A stretch of DNA of 64,000 bases from Patescibacteria group bacterium (GTDB lineage: Bacteria > Patescibacteriota > Microgenomatia > UBA1400 > PJMF01), in NCBI GenBank assembly GCA_041747555.1, contig JBGTEY010000009.1, positions 26,473 to 90,472 of the forward strand. The letters run 5' to 3'. Positions 3,624-63,140 of the stretch are shown piece by piece. Under the pieces are notes generated by a model. That model did not search any database. It was not told where the DNA came from and saw nothing but the letters and a program-made list of their open reading frames with translations. The position numbers and the translations under genes are program-made. The stretch's first letter is position 1, and each line of letters opens with the position of its first letter.

Positions 3624-4289
3624 TTAGCGCCAATCAATGCCCTCTAACCCCTGTAGGGCCAAATACGAATTAGCTTGACTAAAATGATGCTTTCCATGAA
3701 ACAGTTGGGCAGAAAATGGTGAAGGGTGACCGGACTCTAGAACGAGGTTTTTTTCACGATCGATGTGCTGACCTTTTTGCTGTGCGTATTTTCCCCAGAG
3801 GAGATAGACGATGCCAGTGCGGTTATCATTTACTGCTTTGATAGTTTGATCGGTGAATATTTCCCAGCCTTTATTTTTATGTGAGGCAGGATTTTTGGCG
3901 AGCACTGTCAAAACACTGTTAAGGAGGAGCACTCCTTGCTTGGCCCAGCGTGTTAGGTCTCCAGAGTTGTGGGGGGTGACTTCAAGATCATGTTGAATTT
4001 CTTTAAAAATATTTGCCAAAGAAGGTGGAATTTTGGTCCCGTCGTTAACGGCAAAACTTAGCCCATTAGCCTGACCTGGTCCGTGATATGGATCTTGTCC
4101 GACAATTACAACTTTTACCTGATCAAGAGGGCAGAGGTCGTACGCTCTAAAAATATGTTTAGCGGGGGGAAATACATTTTTGGTTGAGTATTCCTCCCGA
4201 ACAAACGCGGTTAACTCCTGCCAATATTCTGCAGAAAATTCTTGCTTTAGCGCATTTTTCCAAGATTCATGGATGATAACTTGACTCAT
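3624..4289 (-). CDS. ung: Uracil-DNA glycosylase (family 1)
   Basis: GQDPYH motif (VVIVGQDPYHGPGQANG), LLLN motif, and HPSPxSA motif (HPSPFSAQ). The track ORF extends to 4430, but homology begins at MSQVIIHESWKNALK (ATG at 4289), giving a typical size of about 222 aa. Confidence 0.88.
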   Translation of the reverse strand: MSQVIIHESWKNALKQEFSAEYWQELTAFVREEYSTKNVFPPAKHIFRAYDLCPLDQVKVVIVGQDPYHGPGQANGLSFAVNDGTKIPPSLANIFKEIQHDLEVTPHNSGDLTRWAKQGVLLLNSVLTVLAKNPASHKNKGWEIFTDQTIKAVNDNRTGIVYLLWGKYAQQKGQHIDREKNLVLESGHPSPFSAQLFHGKHHFSQANSYLALQGLEGIDWR

Positions 4290-7034: not shown

Positions 7035-7217
7035 AGTAATCCTTTATGTTATTACTATACAGAAAAGTATATATCAGATATGTACTAATTACAATGGCAT
7101 CAATTTATGCATCACGAGTTAGGATACACCTCGTGGTTGTGGATTCCGTGTACTTGGGGGATGTGATGCATGTCTGACAATTGTGTAGCCTCCAGTATTT
7201 GTGCTACAGTAACAATT

Positions 7218-8465
7218 ATGAAAACAAGACGTTTATTACTTGCAATTTTATTGGCGACCGGAGGACTGCTATTTTCTGTTTTAGGACTATCCCAAATAGT
7301 GAATGCCCAGCAATTAGTGAGCTGGAACAATCCAGGCTGGGGGTCATCTACAGATGTGATTCATTCAACTGTTAAAAGTCCTGCGATGGGTAATATTGAC
7401 GTTGGATACACTATATATTTACCACCTGGATACAACTCGAGTCAAAATAGATATCCTACCGTTTATTTTTTACACGGTATACAAGGTCATGAGTGGAATT
7501 ATCACAATAGTTTGGGAAGTAATCCCAACGGAATTGTTCAGCTGGTTAAATCTGGTGCTGTGGAACCGATGATTTTGGTTTTTCCAAATGGTGGTTCTGG
7601 ATTGAATTACATTGATGCACCAGGTAATTGTGCAGATACCAAAGCCTGTCCTGAATCAATGTTAATTAATGAATTGCTGCCCCATATCGATCAAACATAC
7701 CGAACCATTCCAGAGAAAGAATTTAGAGCAATTCAAGGATTCTCTATGGGTGGCATGGGTGCGACCTACCTTGGAACAAAATATCCAGAATTGTTTAGTT
7801 CAATTGCAACACAGTCAAGTGCCTGTCAACTGCTAGCAAACTGTGAATCCGTAAAAAATCACATTCAATCAAACATCTCATCAAATGCATCGTACTTAAG
7901 AGATACGGTGGCATTTAGAGTTTCATATGGATCTCAAGAAGGAAGTCCGAGTGGAAGTGGTATCGCCGGTTGGCAATCGTCCTTACACACCACGCTAAAT
8001 GGGTATGGAATCCAAACAGAATTACTCAGTTTATTAGGTACAGGTCATAATATGAGTGCGCAACACTCGGTGGTGAACCCAAGCACAAGTCGAACATTTG
8101 GTTTAGATACACTGATGTTCCATAGTGATAATTTTGGAAATGGCTCAACACCTCCTGGGCCGAGCGTACAACCATCAGCATCGCCAACAACAATTGCGTC
8201 GCCGGTTTCCTCTCCAGTTGCGTCACCGATCGCTTCCCCAGTGTCATCTCCAAACCCAACTGATGAACCTTCGCCGTCCCCCAGCACTGAGGAGCCACTA
8301 TTCCCTGACTACAATAGAGACGGATTAATTACGTATTCTGATTTCGAAATGCTGCTACCTGCGTTGTTTGGTTCGAATTGCGCCATTAACCTTTTGGGTA
8401 GCTGTGAGATTGACCTTTTTGACTACAACGCGTTTATGACTGCATATGAAAGTGAGAATCTATGA
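7218..8465 (+). CDS. Secreted esterase (alpha/beta hydrolase, putative esterase family) with a C-terminal dockerin-like module
   Basis: Signal peptide (MKTRRLLLAILLATGGLLFSVLG). Nucleophile elbow GFSMGG in an esterase-like context (TVYFLHGIQGHEWN). A P/S-rich linker is followed by a Ca-binding dockerin repeat DYNRDGLITYSD (D-x-N-x-D-G-x-I-x-x-x-D). The track ORF begins 16 codons earlier at 7170. Confidence 0.6.
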   Translation: MKTRRLLLAILLATGGLLFSVLGLSQIVNAQQLVSWNNPGWGSSTDVIHSTVKSPAMGNIDVGYTIYLPPGYNSSQNRYPTVYFLHGIQGHEWNYHNSLGSNPNGIVQLVKSGAVEPMILVFPNGGSGLNYIDAPGNCADTKACPESMLINELLPHIDQTYRTIPEKEFRAIQGFSMGGMGATYLGTKYPELFSSIATQSSACQLLANCESVKNHIQSNISSNASYLRDTVAFRVSYGSQEGSPSGSGIAGWQSSLHTTLNGYGIQTELLSLLGTGHNMSAQHSVVNPSTSRTFGLDTLMFHSDNFGNGSTPPGPSVQPSASPTTIASPVSSPVASPIASPVSSPNPTDEPSPSPSTEEPLFPDYNRDGLITYSDFEMLLPALFGSNCAINLLGSCEIDLFDYNAFMTAYESENL

Positions 8466-51648: not shown

Positions 51649-53472
51649 ATGTCTCAAATTCAAGAAGTAAAGGACGCGACCGATATCGTGACCATCATTG
51701 GTGAACGCTTGACGTTACAGCGCGCAGGCAGTTATTACAAGGCGAATTGTCCGTTTCATAGCGAGCGGTCACCGTCTTTCTTTGTAAATGAGGTAATCCA
51801 GAGATATAAATGTTATGGTTGTGGCGAGCATGGGGATGTGTTTGAGTTTCTAGAAAAATACGAGGGGCTCACATTTTATGAAACGCTCAAGTATTTGGCT
51901 GAAAAGGCCGGCGTCACGCTTAAGGAGCAAGTCAGAACCAAAGACGATGAGCTGCGCGACGAAGTACTCGCGGCACTCAATCTAGCAAAAGAGTATTATC
52001 ATTACCTACTAATCACGCACGAAGTTGGCGCACCCGCGCGGGAGTATCTCAAGAATCGTGGAATTTCTACTGCCATGATCAAGCATTTTGGTGTCGGATA
52101 CTCACTCGATTCCTGGGATGGGCTACTGACATTTTTAGAGAAAAAGAAGAAAATTTCACCGAAAGTATTGCTCGCGGCTGGTTTGGTAATTACAGGGAAA
52201 ACGAATCGGTCATACGATCGATTTAGGGGCAGAATTATGTTTCCGCTCAAGAATAATCGCGGTCAAGTGGTTGGTTTTTCTGGTAGAACGCTTGACTCAG
52301 ATGCGAAGGAAGCCAAATATATCAACTCACCAGAAACAATGGTATATCACAAGAGCTCGCTCCTCTTTGGGTATTCTGAACAACTGCAAGAAATTCGAAA
52401 AGCTAAAACCATGATCGTGGTTGAAGGCGAGTTTGATGTAATCTCATCTGTCCAGGCACACGTGCCCAATATAGTTGCCATCAAAGGATCGGCGTTTACC
52501 AAAGAACAAGCGCGACTCGTCGCCCGATTGGTAGAGACGGTGTATCTGAGTCTTGATACAGACGCTGCAGGTGTGAAGGCCACCAAAGAAGCACTAAAAG
52601 TCCTCAAACCACATGAAATTGACGTTCGTGTTATTAAGATTCCAGAAGGAAAAGATCCTGACGAATTAGCCCGACACCATCCTAAAGAATGGCGTGAGGC
52701 CACCAAGCGAAGTATTTCTGTGTATGAATTTTTGTTAGAGTCCGCACTCAAGCAACACGATCACACCGCACCAGAAGGTAAGCGGGCAATCATGAAAGAA
52801 ATTGCACCATACATCAGTGAAATAACTCATGCAGTAGAGCGTGAGCATTACATTACCCTGTTGGCAAGTGCGCTCAAGGTCAAGCAAGATGTAGTTCGTA
52901 GTGACGTGGCAATGTATAGTTCTAAAAAGCCAAAAGTAGCTGAGCGGGCAGCAGACCAAGATCAACGGGCTACAACAGATAACGCCAAAGCTGAGCAACG
53001 CCCACTTTCTGGAAGAGAACGAAATGAGCGGTACTCACTTTTCCTGCTGTTTTTGCATGAAGAATCCGATATTCCTATTAAGGCTCTTGAGCTAAAAGAA
53101 CTCCAGTTCACCTATCCCGGCGCACAGAAATTAATTACCTTACTCCAAGAATATGGTAAAAAACTCGCCAACACCCAACAAAAATTTTCACTCAGGGCAT
53201 TTTCGCAGCAATTGCCCTCTGATTTACAGCAGTTGTTGCTAGAGGTAACAACCAATCCCGAATTAATCTCACTCTCACAATCACTTGATCTCTCCAAAGA
53301 ATGGAAACATACCATCAAGGATCTTAAACAGAGCTCAGCACAACTAGAAGTAGAACGAATCGCCGCTCGGCTTGAAGAACTGGATGAAATAAGCGAGCTT
53401 TCACCAGAAGAAGAAGCCGAACAACAAGAGCTGCTCCAAAAAATTGTGACGCTTAAACATCAGTCGGTGTAA
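51649..53472 (+). CDS. dnaG: DNA primase
   Basis: Zinc finger (CPFHSERSPSF...CYGCGEHGD) and a TOPRIM domain (IVVEGEFDVIS...DTDAAG). Confidence 0.9.
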   Translation: MSQIQEVKDATDIVTIIGERLTLQRAGSYYKANCPFHSERSPSFFVNEVIQRYKCYGCGEHGDVFEFLEKYEGLTFYETLKYLAEKAGVTLKEQVRTKDDELRDEVLAALNLAKEYYHYLLITHEVGAPAREYLKNRGISTAMIKHFGVGYSLDSWDGLLTFLEKKKKISPKVLLAAGLVITGKTNRSYDRFRGRIMFPLKNNRGQVVGFSGRTLDSDAKEAKYINSPETMVYHKSSLLFGYSEQLQEIRKAKTMIVVEGEFDVISSVQAHVPNIVAIKGSAFTKEQARLVARLVETVYLSLDTDAAGVKATKEALKVLKPHEIDVRVIKIPEGKDPDELARHHPKEWREATKRSISVYEFLLESALKQHDHTAPEGKRAIMKEIAPYISEITHAVEREHYITLLASALKVKQDVVRSDVAMYSSKKPKVAERAADQDQRATTDNAKAEQRPLSGRERNERYSLFLLFLHEESDIPIKALELKELQFTYPGAQKLITLLQEYGKKLANTQQKFSLRAFSQQLPSDLQQLLLEVTTNPELISLSQSLDLSKEWKHTIKDLKQSSAQLEVERIAARLEELDEISELSPEEEAEQQELLQKIVTLKHQSV

Positions 53473-53505
53473 TCAACTGTGTACCGCTCCAGATCAAATT
53501 GACCG

Positions 53506-53535
53506 TTGACAATGCATACCCCCAGGGGGTATATT
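53506..53535 (+). promoter_or_regulatory. Sigma-70-type promoter (-35 TTGACA at 53506-53511, -10 TATATT at 53530-53535) overlapped by a perfect 17-bp palindrome operator ATACCCCCAGGGGGTAT (53516-53532)
   Basis: The palindrome matches the CsoR/RcnR-type operator architecture (ATACCC-n-GGGTAT). It lies between the -35 and -10 elements, immediately upstream of the CsoR-family gene. Confidence 0.6.
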
Positions 53536-53541
53536 GAAGCA

Positions 53542-53823
53542 ATGAAAGCCCAAGCTATAAAACCAGAAGCTCAATCACATCCTACTCGAGAAAAAGACGT
53601 AATTGTCAAACAACTCAAGCGCATTCGCGGTCAACTCGATGGCGTGATTTCCATGTATGAATCAGAGCGCGCTTGTGTGGATATTGTCCGTCAAGTTGCG
53701 GCTGCCAGGAGTTCATTAGGTAGGGTGGCTCGTGATCTTTTAACTGGAGAAGCAAATCGATGCTCAAAAGAACGTAGAATTTCTGATCTTGATGATATTT
53801 TGAAAGAAATTTTTCGCAATTAG
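53542..53823 (+). CDS. CsoR/RcnR/FrmR-family metal/persulfide-sensing repressor (Cys-x29-Cys, no His; CstR-like)
   Basis: 93-aa DUF156 helix-bundle protein with ERACVDIV...ANRCSKE. The track ORF begins at a TTG at 53506, but that start would place the operator and promoter inside the coding sequence. Confidence 0.7.
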   Translation: MKAQAIKPEAQSHPTREKDVIVKQLKRIRGQLDGVISMYESERACVDIVRQVAAARSSLGRVARDLLTGEANRCSKERRISDLDDILKEIFRN

Positions 53824-53907
53824 TGATGAAATTTCAAAAAATTTAATAAAATTTGGGAAAAAACAACAGTAAGCGTATAGTAGCAATAAAAGACAAGAAA
53901 GGTATCT

Positions 53908-54261
53908 ATGTCAGATGATCAACAAAAAGGAGCGGCCCACTGGACCGACGACACATTTGAAAGTAACTTAAAAAAAGCCACAGAAAGCGGCAGACCAGTT
54001 ATGGTCGATTTCTATGCAGATTGGTGTGGTCCATGCAAAATGGCAGCGCCAATTATCGATAAACTTGCAGAAGAATTTGCTGGCAAAGTTGAAATTGTAA
54101 AAGTAGATGTTGATACCAACAATGCTACTGCAGGCAAGCATCAGATCATGAGCATTCCTACAGTCATCATGTTTGACTCAGAAGGAAAAGAAGCACAAAA
54201 GCAAATTGGATTTCCTGGTGAGCAGGGATATCGCAACATGATTGATGGAGTACTTACCTAA
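53908..54261 (+). CDS. trxA: Thioredoxin
   Basis: WCGPCK active site. Confidence 0.9.
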   Translation: MSDDQQKGAAHWTDDTFESNLKKATESGRPVMVDFYADWCGPCKMAAPIIDKLAEEFAGKVEIVKVDVDTNNATAGKHQIMSIPTVIMFDSEGKEAQKQIGFPGEQGYRNMIDGVLT

Positions 54262-54274
54262 TTGAAATTTATTT

Positions 54275-55339
54275 ATGACCAAAACGAAACTTGCAATTAT
54301 TGGTTCAGGTCCGGCTGGGTATACGGCTGCGGTATATGCGGCCCGAGCACGGCTCGAGCCGCATATCTTCGCCGGCTTTAAATCTGGTGGACAACTGATG
54401 TGGACCACCGAGGTCGAAAACTACCCTGGGTTCACAGACGGAATCATGGGTCCAGACCTAATGATGCAGTTTCGTGGTCAAGCAGAGCGGTTTGGTGCAC
54501 ACGTTGAAGATATTTTTGTGACTGCAGTTGATTTCAGTCAGCGACCATTCAAGCTGTGGACTGCTTTACCAGACAACATGGCGCCTGATTTTTTTGAAAC
54601 TGCATCTCCAGAAGACATCAAAGCACTCACAATTCGTATTAAAAAAGAGCTCGAACCCGCGTGCGAAGCAGAATCAGTCGTCGTTGCCACTGGTGCATCG
54701 TCAATTATGGTTGGCGTTCCTGGTGAAAAAGAATTTCTCGCCAGAGGTGTCAGCACCTGCGCGGTGTGCGACGCAGCTTTTTTCCGTGATAAAGTCACGT
54801 ACGTTGTTGGCGGTGGTGATAGTGCTATGGAAGACACAATGGCACTCACCAAATTTGCCAAGAGTGTGACCGTTATTCATCGCAGAGATGCATTTCGCGC
54901 CAGCCAAATTATGCAGGAGCGCGTTTTAAACAATGAAAAGGTCAAAGTACTCTGGAACACCACTCTCGATGCAGTTACAGGAGATGACAAAGTAACCGGC
55001 ATCACCATCACCGAAAACGGTGAGAAAAAAGAACTTCCTGCAGATGGCGTATTTATTGCCATCGGTCACAAGCCGATGAATCAAATTTTCCAGGATCAAT
55101 TACAGCTTGATAATCATGGGTACATTGTTACGCGTCAAAGCGGCACTAAAGCAGGTGTTGAGGCCGCAAGCGCAGCTGTCGATGATGCAGGCATTGTCAC
55201 GTTCCCAAGTATGACGTCTGTCGAAGGCGTTTTTGCTGCAGGTGATAACGTCGATGTTCGATACAAGCAAGCGGTGACAGCAGCCGGTCAAGGATGTAGC
55301 GCTGCACTCGATGCAGAGCGGTGGCTCGAACGACAGTAA
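54275..55339 (+). CDS. trxB: Thioredoxin-disulfide reductase
   Basis: FAD motif GSGPAGYTAA, redox-active CAVCD, and a GGGDSAME NADPH motif. Confidence 0.85.
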   Translation: MTKTKLAIIGSGPAGYTAAVYAARARLEPHIFAGFKSGGQLMWTTEVENYPGFTDGIMGPDLMMQFRGQAERFGAHVEDIFVTAVDFSQRPFKLWTALPDNMAPDFFETASPEDIKALTIRIKKELEPACEAESVVVATGASSIMVGVPGEKEFLARGVSTCAVCDAAFFRDKVTYVVGGGDSAMEDTMALTKFAKSVTVIHRRDAFRASQIMQERVLNNEKVKVLWNTTLDAVTGDDKVTGITITENGEKKELPADGVFIAIGHKPMNQIFQDQLQLDNHGYIVTRQSGTKAGVEAASAAVDDAGIVTFPSMTSVEGVFAAGDNVDVRYKQAVTAAGQGCSAALDAERWLERQ

Positions 55340-55408
55340 TTTTTTTTGAACAGCGCTTTTTAGTAGTACATTTTAGTAAAAAAATCATTTCTGCCCAAGA
55401 AAGACTCT

Positions 55409-56692
55409 ATGAACGATCCGCACCTTCAGGCAATTCAGCAACTCAAGCAAGTGGCAAGACTTTTAAAGCCGCAGTATGAGGAACCTGACCGATTTGATGC
55501 GGCAATCGAACAACTGACAGAACCAGACTTGCTCCTCAGCGGAGAACTCGAAATTAAACTCGACAACGGCAAAACCAAAACCTACACCGCGTACCGCAGT
55601 CAACACAACAACGCTCGCGGTCCCTACAAAGGTGGCATTCGATTTCATCAAGATGTGAGCGAGTCTGAGGTCAAGGCACTTTCAACATGGATGACCTGGA
55701 AATGCGCCGTGACGGGCATTCCATACGGTGGCGGAAAAGGTGGCGTAATCGTGAACCCGCGTGAGTTAAGTGACGCAGAATTGCAGCGACTGAGTCGTGC
55801 CTATGCACGATTTTTGGCTGATGACGTTGGACCGTGGCGCGATGTGCCCGCACCTGACGTCAACACCACGCCTCAAATAATGGCGTGGATGGTGAATGAA
55901 TATGAACAGATTATGGTCGAAAATGGCACGTTGCTAGAGAATCCACGCGCTACTTTTACCGGGAAACCCCTTGAATACGGCGGTTCAGAAGGCCGAACTG
56001 AGGCAACGGGCCTGGGTGGTGTCATGATTTTGCAAGAATTAGCCAAGGCACGTTCACTTGAGCCAAAAGAAACAACAATTGCTATCCAAGGATTTGGAAA
56101 TGTCGGTTATTGGTTTGCCAAGCACTCGCATGATTTGGGATATAAAATTGTCGCAGTTTCTGACTCAAGCACTGCAGTGTATGACCCATCGGGTCTTGAC
56201 CCAGTGAAAGTATTGGAAACAAAAGAAAAGAGTGGATCATTCAAAAAAGCAGAATTTAAAACTGCAAAAAAAATAACAAACGAGGAATTGCTGGAGCTAG
56301 ACGTTTCTGTTTTGGTCCCGTCAGCACTAGAAAATGTCATCCACGCCAAAAATGCCAGCAGGCTAAAAGCTAAATATGTCATCGAAATGGCAAATGGCCC
56401 CACCACGCCTGAAGCAGATGCAATACTTGAGAAAAAAGGCATTCTCGTCATCCCCGATGTCCTGGCAAATGCGGGTGGCGTGACTGTTTCTTATTTTGAA
56501 TGGGTTCAAAACTTGCACGGATATTACTGGAGTCGTGATGAAGTGGTTGCTAAGCTCGAGCCACTGATGGAGCGAGCGTTTGCTGATATGTGGCGATTTC
56601 ATCAAACTGACAAGCTGGCACTACGAATGTCAGCCTACATGAGCGCGGTCAAAAAGGTGGTAGACGCCATGATGATCTCTGGTGTAGTATAA
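55409..56692 (+). CDS. gdhA: Glutamate dehydrogenase (Glu/Leu/Phe/Val dehydrogenase family)
   Basis: GGGKGG (PYGGGKGGV) and the NAD(P)-binding motif GFGNVGYWFA. Confidence 0.85.
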   Translation: MNDPHLQAIQQLKQVARLLKPQYEEPDRFDAAIEQLTEPDLLLSGELEIKLDNGKTKTYTAYRSQHNNARGPYKGGIRFHQDVSESEVKALSTWMTWKCAVTGIPYGGGKGGVIVNPRELSDAELQRLSRAYARFLADDVGPWRDVPAPDVNTTPQIMAWMVNEYEQIMVENGTLLENPRATFTGKPLEYGGSEGRTEATGLGGVMILQELAKARSLEPKETTIAIQGFGNVGYWFAKHSHDLGYKIVAVSDSSTAVYDPSGLDPVKVLETKEKSGSFKKAEFKTAKKITNEELLELDVSVLVPSALENVIHAKNASRLKAKYVIEMANGPTTPEADAILEKKGILVIPDVLANAGGVTVSYFEWVQNLHGYYWSRDEVVAKLEPLMERAFADMWRFHQTDKLALRMSAYMSAVKKVVDAMMISGVV

Positions 56693-62623: not shown

Positions 62624-62774
62624 AGTTCAGTATAGCAAGGGTCCCATGAAATTGTAGGACCGCACAAACCCGCTCGATCTGTAGTAAAAGCGGTGTTTGT
62701 TTGTTACAATACAGTTCGCTATCTGATGTGCCGGCAGCGACGCCGACACTGACGAGGCACTTAACAAGTGAAGA

Positions 62775-63096
62775 TCCCCTGTAGCTCAACGGCAGAGCGC
62801 CCGGCTGTAAGATATTGCAGCTTCCGTCAGAAATGGCGGAATGATAATTGGGTGAACTGCGGGAAGCCTAACCTTTGTATCGCGAAGTATGGTAATCCGC
62901 AGCCAAGCCGTGTTGAAAGACACGGAAGGTTCAGAGACTAGGTGTGTACACCCAGACCCCGCAAACTGCGGGGCAGAGCGCCCGACACCTTCATTGACAC
63001 CGTCAATAAGGTGATGAGATAGTCCATGCCAGCCAGAAATGGTTGGGTCACGTGTAACCGGTAGGTTGGAGGTTCGAATCCTCCCGGGGGAGCCAT
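62775..63096 (+). tRNA. tRNA (most likely Asn-GUU; alternative Thr-UGU) interrupted in the anticodon loop by a group I intron
   Basis: 5' exon TCCCCTG-TA-GCTCAACGGCAGAGC-G-CCCGG-CTGT. 3' exon TAACCGGTAGGTTGGAGGTTCGAATCCTCCCGGGGGAGCCA (T-arm, acceptor, discriminator G, encoded CCA). The candidate P1 pairs exon GGCTGT with intron GCAGCT, with U.G at the splice site. Confidence 0.7.
62809..63055 (+). ncRNA. Group I self-splicing intron (~247 nt) within the tRNA
   Basis: Canonical core elements: P (TGCGGGAAG), Q (AATCCGCAGC), R (GTTCAGAGACTA), and S (GAGATAGTCC). P7 pairing GACTA/TAGTC. P9 hairpin CCAGCC-agaaa-TGGTTGG. Terminal G before the 3' exon. Confidence 0.7.
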
Positions 63097-63140
63097 ATAG
63101 ATCTTATCCGAACTAAATTTTCTGCCCAGAAAGTTGACCT

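Follow-up and report, generated by a model that had tools for sequence, protein, structure and literature searches.

The window analysed here is a 64-kb stretch of a Patescibacteria group bacterium genome (contig JBGTEY010000009.1, 64,000 nucleotides), to which all coordinates given without a locus name refer. It harbors a gene for a predicted repressor of the CsoR/RcnR family, located directly upstream of trxA and trxB, which encode a thioredoxin and a thioredoxin reductase. It is very likely that these three genes form a self-repressed operon controlled by an operator in the promoter of the regulator gene. Most likely, the regulator switches the main disulfide-reducing system of the cell in response to thiol oxidation, since the copper-ligand His of the family is lost, a 17-bp site is present in its own promoter, and the thioredoxin genes always follow it in this lineage. 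We put the probability of the complete mechanism, in which thiol oxidation is the signal, at about 0.6.

Promoter, operator and start codon

The regulator gene is preceded by a −35 hexamer TTGACA and a −10 hexamer TATATT with a spacer of 18 nt, and a perfect palindrome of 17 bp (ATACCCCCAGGGGGTAT, 8+1+8) occupies the region between them (Table 1). A first-pass annotation of the DNA had described such a palindrome between the two hexamers, and reading of the sequence confirmed it, with the addition that the right arm shares bases with the −10: the hexamer begins with the three bases that end the palindrome. Written out, the operator reads A-TAC-CCCCAGGGG-GTA-T. The promoter agrees with the consensus at 11 of 12 positions and is the top site of the promoter scan within 53200-55700. 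Together TTGACA, palindrome and TATATT make up one promoter/operator. Allowing up to 3 mismatches, the 64-kb window contains no match other than the palindrome itself (chance expectation 0.04), i.e. no further operators are found there at this threshold, and in the shuffle control two matches occurred in 0 of 100 shuffles.

A search of 5.8 billion proteins gave 220 relatives of the regulator with 60-85% identity, and a scan of one genome per species provided 42 orthologous loci (L001-L042), which together with the window constitute the 43 loci referred to below. The 17-bp element ATACCC-N5-GGGTAT is found in all 43 loci, always 17 bp in length and exactly once per locus. The −35 hexamer TTGACA is exact in 37 loci and has one mismatch in the remaining 6. 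In 35/43 loci the spacer is 17-18 nt long and the −10 starts with the TAT of the element itself; the most frequent −10 sequence is TATATT (13/43). The element carries 1.71 bits of information per position, as compared to 0.16-0.21 in the flanks. Conservation upstream of orthologues, on which the first-pass annotation had made its proposal depend, is thus confirmed. In the wider set of 62 thioredoxin-linked loci (ca. 480 kb), 55 loci carry a single copy of the motif and none carries two. The motif is sited at the regulator promoter in the window, in all 42 orthologous loci, and in the distant loci (see below) of which the upstream DNA was read.

The consensus operator of the orthologues is ATACCCCCTAGGGGTAT, and its core is the same as that of the Streptomyces lividans copZA operators (PMC3902906). 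CsoR operators are defined in the same study by the motif TAC-X9-GTA enclosing a G/C tract, and the assignment of the palindrome to the CsoR/RcnR operator type agrees with this definition. The predicted site combines the features of superfamily operators, i.e. a pseudo-palindrome, a G/C tract, TAC/GTA flanks and promoter overlap, in 43/43 loci. Streptococcal CstR operators are of the same ATACCC...GGGTAT kind, for example the S. mitis cst operator ATATACCCTTATGGGGTATAT (PMC8643695), and a CsoR can therefore not be told from a CstR by its type of operator.

The named relatives are mostly Patescibacteria, Woesebacteria or Pacebacteria, and the regulator clade appears to be specific to Microgenomates-type Patescibacteria. 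A few relatives carry the names Vitreimonas or Pseudomonadales, apparently through mislabelling. Many of the L001-L042 records are titled 'uncultured Pseudomonadales bacterium' or 'Vitreimonas sp.'; these are metagenome-assembled genomes of small-genome Patescibacteria, with gene content and nearest named relatives corresponding to Woesebacteria, Pacebacteria or Patescibacteria, and the titles look like taxonomic mislabelling.

Conservation of the element also bears on the start codon. The mechanical list of open reading frames (ORFs) places the start at TTG 53506 (105 amino acids) and the public gene call P0001 (53512-53823) at ATG 53512 (103 amino acids). The latter begins upstream of the −10, inside the operator-bearing promoter. 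ATG 53542 sits 6 nt past the −10. Counting the nucleotides between the palindrome and the conserved protein core assigns 18, 13 and 12 of the 43 loci to the three frames, which shows no frame preference, so the element is conserved as DNA and not as codons. An in-frame start upstream of the operator is absent in 35/43 loci, and in 26/43 the first available start lies 5-9 nt after the −10. For these three reasons ATG 53542 is the true start as judged from the comparative data, which give a product of 93 amino acids and correct the public call of 103; the suggestion of the first-pass annotation that the annotated TTG start is wrong and that the regulator begins at ATG 53542 is borne out. Since this ATG coincides with the predicted +1, the regulator mRNA is probably leaderless. 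A literature search on leaderless mRNAs in Patescibacteria yielded no directly useful paper.

Two other explanations of the palindrome were rejected. As a coding sequence it would specify MHTPRGY of the 103/105-residue ORF, a reading at odds with the frame distribution and with most orthologues having no upstream start. As an intrinsic terminator of dnaG it has no T-run following it, and the scan calls no terminator on the + strand at this position. A peculiar case is L007 (ca. 3940-4010), which has no ATG, GTG or TTG start downstream of the −10; the sole in-frame start is the TTG of the −35 hexamer TTGACA. This may reflect a sequencing error or, on a leaderless mRNA, the use of ATT or CTG as the start.

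Family membership and ligand residues

The regulator matches PF02583 (CsoR/RcnR, metal-sensitive repressor, formerly DUF156) with 65.9 bits at a cut-off of 22.8, covering profile positions 2-71 of 78. None of the NCBIfam models of characterised members is reached, with scores of 42.9 for RicR (cut-off 175), 27.3 for RcnR (138) and 26.8 bits for FrmR (133). Among solved structures, the best sequence matches are Geobacillus CsoR (4m1p), Mycobacterium tuberculosis CsoR (2hh7), InrS (5fmn) and Streptococcus pneumoniae CstR (7mq1-3). The AlphaFold (AF2) model of the protomer (pLDDT 85.8) consists of three helices (residues 15-40, 45-76 and 80-91), and its top 20 Foldseek matches in the PDB are all CsoR-family proteins (CsoR, CstR, InrS or FrmR). 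Relatives share a core of ca. 78 amino acids; the N-terminus is variable in the 37 aligned sequences and often missing.

C45 and C74 occupy both Cys positions (X and Z) in all of these PDB alignments, and their spacing, Cys-x28-Cys, is that of C36 and C65 in M. tuberculosis CsoR. The Cys pair proposed by the first-pass annotation is therefore present at the ligand positions, whereas the x29 spacing given there has to be replaced by x28. At position Y, E70 aligns with the His ligand of the H-x3-C motif of CsoR and with the wedge Asn55 of S. pneumoniae CstR (7mq1). The absence of the His of Cu-sensing CsoR, also part of the earlier proposal, is thereby verified; the metal-ligand positions do not align with the His-containing CsoR/RcnR set, an outcome that would have spoken against the proposal. 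C45, E70 and C74 are invariant (37/37). Of the x-C-H-C ligand set (Cys36, His61 and Cys65 in M. tuberculosis numbering) the His is thus missing in all 37 sequences, E70 being found instead, and the second-shell Tyr of CsoR is replaced as well, by A44 here and by Ala, Gly or Ser in the clade.

By these residues the protein is a member of the CsoR/RcnR superfamily that lacks the defining features of Cu-CsoR, CstR, RcnR/InrS and FrmR alike. As in CstR, two Cys are present at X and Z, both invariant in close orthologues, without a His at Y, but Y is Glu and not the wedge Asn of the x-C-N-C motif. The RcnR/InrS motifs H-C-H-H or H-C-H-C require a conserved N-terminal His, and such sites are excluded since the N-terminal W position is not conserved; Y is again Glu. 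The P-C-H-x motif of FrmR does not apply either. An aldehyde or electrophile sensor of the FrmR type would belong to the same family and share a reactive Cys at X, yet it is hardly to be expected here: FrmR needs Pro2 for its Cys-Pro methylene bridge (PMC11672702), whereas no conserved Pro2 occurs among the aligned sequences, Y is Glu, the FrmR model scores far under its cut-off, and the four loci with Pfam annotation contain no adjacent aldehyde dehydrogenase gene.

In the protomer model, X residue C45 sits at the N-terminus of helix 2 and C74 at its opposite end, so that a C45-C74 link would only be possible across subunits. The two residues could meet only at the subunit interface, similar to the subunit-bridging Cu(I) site of M. 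tuberculosis CsoR formed by Cys36 and Cys65 (PMC11672702).

Predicted operon structure

All 41 orthologous loci with downstream sequence contain dnaG, the regulator gene, trxA and trxB, usually followed by gdh and rpoD (tblastn). In the window, the gaps are 84 bp between regulator and trxA and 13 nt between trxA and trxB. Among orthologues the first gap ranges from 12 to 172 bp and is 25 bp or less in 12 loci, and the trxA-trxB spacing is mostly −20 to +70 bp. GAAAGG or AAGGAG precedes trxA in the orthologues, unlike the putatively leaderless regulator. The terminator scan of the region called no + strand terminator between the genes of the predicted operon, including the trxB-gdh interval.

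Table 1. Positions of the predicted regulatory elements, the genes of the thioredoxin cluster and related genes in distant loci.
Feature	Position	Strand	Basis or remarks
dnaG, upstream neighbour	51649-53472	+	Adjacency conserved only among close orthologues
−35 hexamer TTGACA of the regulated promoter	53506-53511	+	Sequence reading; promoter scan
17-bp operator ATACCCCCAGGGGGTAT (TAC-N9-GTA with G/C tract)	53516-53532	no strand	Fills the promoter spacer and overlaps the −10
−10 hexamer TATATT	53530-53535	+	Sequence reading; promoter scan
Predicted CsoR/RcnR-family repressor, 93 amino acids, X-Y-Z = C45-E70-C74	53542-53823	+	PF02583, PDB alignments, AF2 model
Ribosome-binding site GAAAGG, 5 nt before the trxA ATG	53897-53902	+	Sequence reading
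trxA, thioredoxin, WCGPC active site	53908-54261	+	PF00085; TIGR01068, 108.2 bits (cut-off 96.8)
trxB, thioredoxin-disulfide reductase, CAVC redox centre, HRRDAFR NADPH-type motif	54275-55339	+	PF07992; TIGR01292, 344.4 bits (cut-off 343.45)
gdh, glutamate dehydrogenase	55409-56692	+	PF00208, PF02812
DsbD_2/SfLAP-like genes	L063 2736-3461; L064 2656-3411; L067 1425-2186; L143 2577-3329		

By the same criteria, a strong promoter match precedes the regulator gene in 35/42 loci, whereas any sigma-70-like match within 150 nt before trxA is found in 7/42 loci only, all weak (9/12) and including that of the window (TTGGGA-17-TATAGT, 53853-53881). The operator-controlled promoter is therefore the sole conserved promoter of the thioredoxin genes, and in the 12 loci with gaps of 12-25 bp there is no room for a separate trxA promoter. 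An independent trxA promoter was rejected on these grounds. Alternatively, the repressor could control only its own gene, with constitutive thioredoxin expression and the adjacency of trxA-trxB being inherited synteny. The 84-bp gap of the window, which holds the weak promoter-like match, and the synteny of the whole block from dnaG to rpoD in close relatives would agree with this. We regard it as very improbable, given the short gaps, the rarity and weakness of the matches before trxA, and the persistence of the linkage in distant relatives that have lost the adjacency to dnaG; moreover, a repressor targeting only itself is unlikely to persist in genomes of ca. 1 Mb. The position of the regulator directly ahead of trxA-trxB, noted in the first-pass annotation, is thus a feature of near and distant relatives.

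Both near and distant thioredoxin-linked loci have gdh after trxB, and this conserved fourth gene of the cluster is possibly co-transcribed. In eight loci (L002, L006, L008, L012, L019, L021, L026 and L039) trxB and gdh are separated by a gap of ca. 1.2-1.6 kb. The gene in this gap is a malic enzyme gene by Pfam in L006 (5445-6632), and the ORFs in L002, L008 and L019 share its N-terminal sequence. Both gdh and malic enzyme produce NAD(P)H and occur beside a TrxB with an NADPH-type motif, which suggests that the supply of reductant is co-organised with the thioredoxin system.

Distant relatives and the nature of the signal

A profile search of 1.84 billion cluster representatives identified 4665 family members. 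The highest-scoring representatives mostly carry C-E-C at positions X-Y-Z, and lower in the list the canonical Y-C-H-C copper type predominates. The best 150 of the 4665 include 49 C-E-C, 60 C-H-C and 2 C-N-C proteins; by these counts the neighbours of the clade in sequence are copper sensors rather than CstR. A metagenome scan for which distant C-E-C members (35-50% identity to the window protein) served as the seed gave 80 loci. Every non-His member with downstream DNA in this set has trxA directly after it, often together with trxB and gdh (10 C-E-C, 2 C-D-C, and one each of C-A-C, C-E-F, C-E-M and C-S-V), whereas no thioredoxin linkage exists among its 55 C-H-C members. In the pooled ORF-based search, trxB lies within 1.8 kb in 51 of 51 C-E-C loci and trxA in 48, as compared to none of 67 C-H-C loci for either gene; with tblastn, trxA was detected in every orthologous locus that has downstream DNA. 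Three further members with Pfam-annotated contexts, one of them from a Microgenomates-group genome, confirm the pattern. Since the distant loci retain trxA-trxB(-gdh) although dnaG is not their upstream neighbour, the link is not merely frozen synteny.

The operators of the distant loci are ATACCCC...GGGGTAT or ATACT-G6/7-AGTAT, both of 17 bp, and are positioned in the spacer/−10 or the −10/+1 region of a TTGACA promoter. The second type has the same form as the RcnR type-1 site, TACT-G6-N-AGTA (PMC3902906). In a sub-clade of three proteins (P0135, P0138 and P0139) C45 is lost, E70 and C74 are kept, and C80 is gained in all three (RCxDxxC), while P0135 and P0139 also gained C39. The gene for P0139 (locus L145, 1314-1553) still precedes trxA-trxB-gdh and has the operator ATACCCCACGGGGGTAT. 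Such drift of Cys positions under retained thioredoxin linkage is easier to reconcile with a thiol switch than with a fixed metal chelate.

The genes found in the vicinity of the regulators are trxA, trxB, gdh, malic enzyme, and DsbD_2-like or DsbA-like genes. Several distant thioredoxin-linked loci encode, 1-2 genes upstream of the regulator, a membrane protein resembling DsbD_2/SfLAP, which may serve as an electron conduit for thiol-disulfide exchange (Table 1). In L143, a DsbA-like gene (7054-7980) follows gdh, giving a small thiol-redox island. Rhodanese, persulfide dioxygenase, SQR and CoA-persulfide reductase genes were found neither in the four Pfam-annotated loci nor in the conserved synteny. 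No copA or copZ occurs in these four loci, and a CopZ/CopA motif search of 58 thioredoxin-linked loci returned, besides two small ORFs judged spurious, a single partial P-type-ATPase-like ORF in L063, so a copper connection was rejected as a candidate. In L063, a cupredoxin-like ORF (by sequence only) and a stand-alone P-type-ATPase-like hydrolase domain (PF00702) are located upstream of the regulator at 1121-1660 and 1788-2666; this is the sole hint of a metal context among the 58 loci.

The effector may be sought among redox signals (disulfide or peroxide), sulfane sulfur (persulfide) and metals. A metal sensor could bind Cu(I) with its two Cys alone, or Zn, Cd, Co or Ni with Cys2 and Glu70, and thioredoxin would repair metal-induced thiol damage. 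Such a function is improbable, even though the closest solved structures (4m1p and 2hh7) and the closest sequence relatives (C-H-C) are Cu(I) CsoRs, the operator core is that of the Streptomyces copZA sites, Glu70 is invariant as expected of a ligand, and L063 offers its hydrolase domain and cupredoxin-like ORF. Both the second-shell Tyr and the Y-position His are missing, and this His is described as allosterically essential for the response to Cu(I) (PMC8643695). In addition, the motif search of 58 thioredoxin-linked loci detected no adjacent copA or copZ except for the partial case of L063, linkage to thioredoxin is absent from all 67 C-H-C relatives, and the Cys positions drift in the sub-clade.

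A CstR-type sensor of persulfides or reactive sulfur, in which C45 and C74' would be bridged by sulfane sulfur (tri- or tetrasulfides) and the induced thioredoxin system would serve as persulfide reductase, is rather unlikely as well. The x-C-x-C motif without His and the similarity to CstR operators are compatible with it. Furthermore, thioredoxin-like proteins are reported to reduce protein persulfides, and OxyR to induce trx/grx in response to sulfane sulfur (PMC6196236, PMC6831875). However, the sulfur-detoxification genes listed above were not found in the four Pfam-annotated loci or in the conserved synteny, the clade has an invariant Glu in place of the CstR wedge Asn, and C-N-C is found in just 2 of the 150 nearest family representatives. 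The label 'CstR-like' given in the first-pass annotation accordingly holds for the lack of His, and not for the residue replacing it, the nearest neighbours (C-H-C CsoRs) or the gene context. A persulfide sensor overlaps with the thiol-oxidation switch, since CstR itself reacts with H2O2.

Proposed mechanism

A thiol signal is preferred over a metal signal on indirect evidence, namely the missing His, the absence of copper-efflux or sulfur-detoxification neighbours, the disulfide-reducing targets, the chemistry known from CstR and the drift of the Cys positions. In the proposed thiol-oxidation switch, the reduced (dithiol) tetramer would bind the single 17-bp TAC-N9-GTA operator, and RNA polymerase would be blocked because the operator occupies the spacer and the −10 of the sole conserved promoter. 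Starting from the regulator's start, trxA-trxB and probably gdh would be transcribed in one self-repressed operon. Upon disulfide stress, exposure to peroxide or oxidation of the thioredoxin pool as possible triggers, C45 would be joined to C74' of the partner protomer by a disulfide or sulfur-bridged link. The cross-linked repressor would lose its affinity for DNA and the operon would be de-repressed, whereupon newly made thioredoxin and NADPH-dependent thioredoxin reductase could re-reduce the repressor and close a negative feedback loop. Cu(I) would not be an inducer because the copper-ligand His is replaced by an invariant Glu. There is precedent in CstR, which has no His and stays on its DNA in the presence of Cu(I); its subunits become cross-linked through di-, tri- and tetrasulfides, and it reacts fast with H2O2 in vitro (PMC8643695, PMC11672702).

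Several points weigh against the thiol-oxidation switch. Its DNA binding, repression and inducer are inferred for every member of the clade. The Glu at position Y is more conserved than either Cys and is kept in variants without C45 or C74, and E70 could be a ligand for a harder metal. Some thioredoxin-linked members carry only one of the two Cys (C-E-F, C-E-M and C-S-V), so a C45-C74' bridge is not universal. The nearest sequence neighbours are copper sensors. Read-through from dnaG or promoters inside the regulator gene could give thioredoxin expression independent of the operator. Finally, the operator searches, and with them the picture of the regulon, cover 64 kb plus flanks of ca. 8 kb rather than whole genomes.

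More tentatively, and with somewhat less than even odds in our judgement, the clade may represent the oxidant- or disulfide-specific sensor hitherto missing from the CsoR family, in which a copper site was converted to a thiol switch by the His-to-Glu replacement and which is co-transcribed with the thioredoxin, thioredoxin reductase and NAD(P)H dehydrogenase that reset it. The dehydrogenase would be gdh, sometimes together with malic enzyme, and the whole would constitute a minimal self-contained redox homeostat. Patescibacteria with genomes of ca. 1 Mb presumably encode few transcription factors, and such a sensor would possibly be the principal redox regulator of the Microgenomates-type lineages.

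Comparison with known regulators

The Cu(I)-responsive CsoR proteins of M. tuberculosis, Bacillus subtilis, Geobacillus thermodenitrificans and S. lividans resemble the window protein in Pfam family, three-helix protomer, best PDB sequence and fold matches (4m1p, 2hh7), position and spacing of the Cys residues, and the TAC-N9-GTA operator with its G/C tract. A promoter-overlapping operator and an autoregulated gene heading the operon are predicted here as well. The differences concern Y, where Glu replaces His, the second-shell Tyr, replaced by Ala, Gly or Ser, and the targets, which are copZ/copA for CsoR and trxA-trxB(-gdh) here, without a thioredoxin-linked case among the 67 sampled C-H-C relatives. 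CstR of Staphylococcus aureus, Enterococcus faecalis, S. pneumoniae and S. mitis shares the x-C-x-C motif without His, and with it the thiol-based inter-subunit switch proposed here, a similar operator type, and the fold (7mq1-3). It differs in the wedge Asn, described as N55 from the S. pneumoniae CstR structure (PMC11672702), in its sulfurtransferase, persulfide dioxygenase, SQR and CoA-persulfide reductase genes, which are not nearby here, in not being the nearest clade by sequence, and in the host lineage, which here is Patescibacteria. The RcnR/InrS/FrmR branch has the fold in common, and the TACT-G6/7-AGTA site of distant thioredoxin-linked members is the exact RcnR type-1 form; in contrast to that branch, the proteins described here have no conserved N-terminal His or Pro (W) and no His at Y or Z, and the NCBIfam RcnR and FrmR scores are far under the cut-offs.

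Thiol-based regulators of thioredoxin genes elsewhere include RsrA-SigR (Streptomyces trxBA), Spx (Bacillus trxA/trxB) and OxyR (Escherichia coli trxC). The proposed logic is the same as in these systems, i.e. oxidation of a Cys sensor induces thioredoxin genes and thioredoxin re-reduces the sensor. The folds and mechanisms are unrelated, with an anti-sigma factor, an RNA polymerase-binding factor and a LysR-type activator in the known cases, whereas here a simple repressor on the same transcript as its targets is proposed. Another CsoR-family protein with a role in sulfur and thiol metabolism rather than metal efflux is TTHA1953 of Thermus thermophilus, which represses the sox cluster including the thioredoxin SoxW; its operator, TACNNTACNNNNGTANNGTA, has no G/C tract, and its targets are periplasmic Sox enzymes and not cytoplasmic TrxA/TrxB (PMC10318464).

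Neither control of trxA/trxB by a CsoR-family protein nor the C-E-C clade turned up in full-text literature searches; a network study of the CsoR family mentions uncharacterised clusters (PMC8643695). According to a 2024 review of the family, no H2O2-specific member has been characterised, which limits understanding of how oxidants and persulfides are discriminated (PMC11672702). Such an oxidant-sensing member may well be sought in a C-E-C clade devoted to the thioredoxin system, which offers a ready test case. It also provides one of the rare circuits of uncultivated Patescibacteria that can be predicted from end to end, comprising sensor, operator, promoter, leaderless start and targets, and for this reason it can be tested with purified protein, a heterologous reporter or metatranscriptomes.

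Group I intron

Unrelated to the thioredoxin cluster, the window contains a group I intron (Rfam RF00028, 81 bits) at 62799-63046 on the + strand, with flanks at ca. 62770-63100, which splits a tRNA gene. The intron is apparently located in the anticodon loop, and the tRNA is not called by ARAGORN. Trial splicing gave the anticodon as Thr UGU, Asn GUU or Tyr GUA, depending on the exact splice sites.

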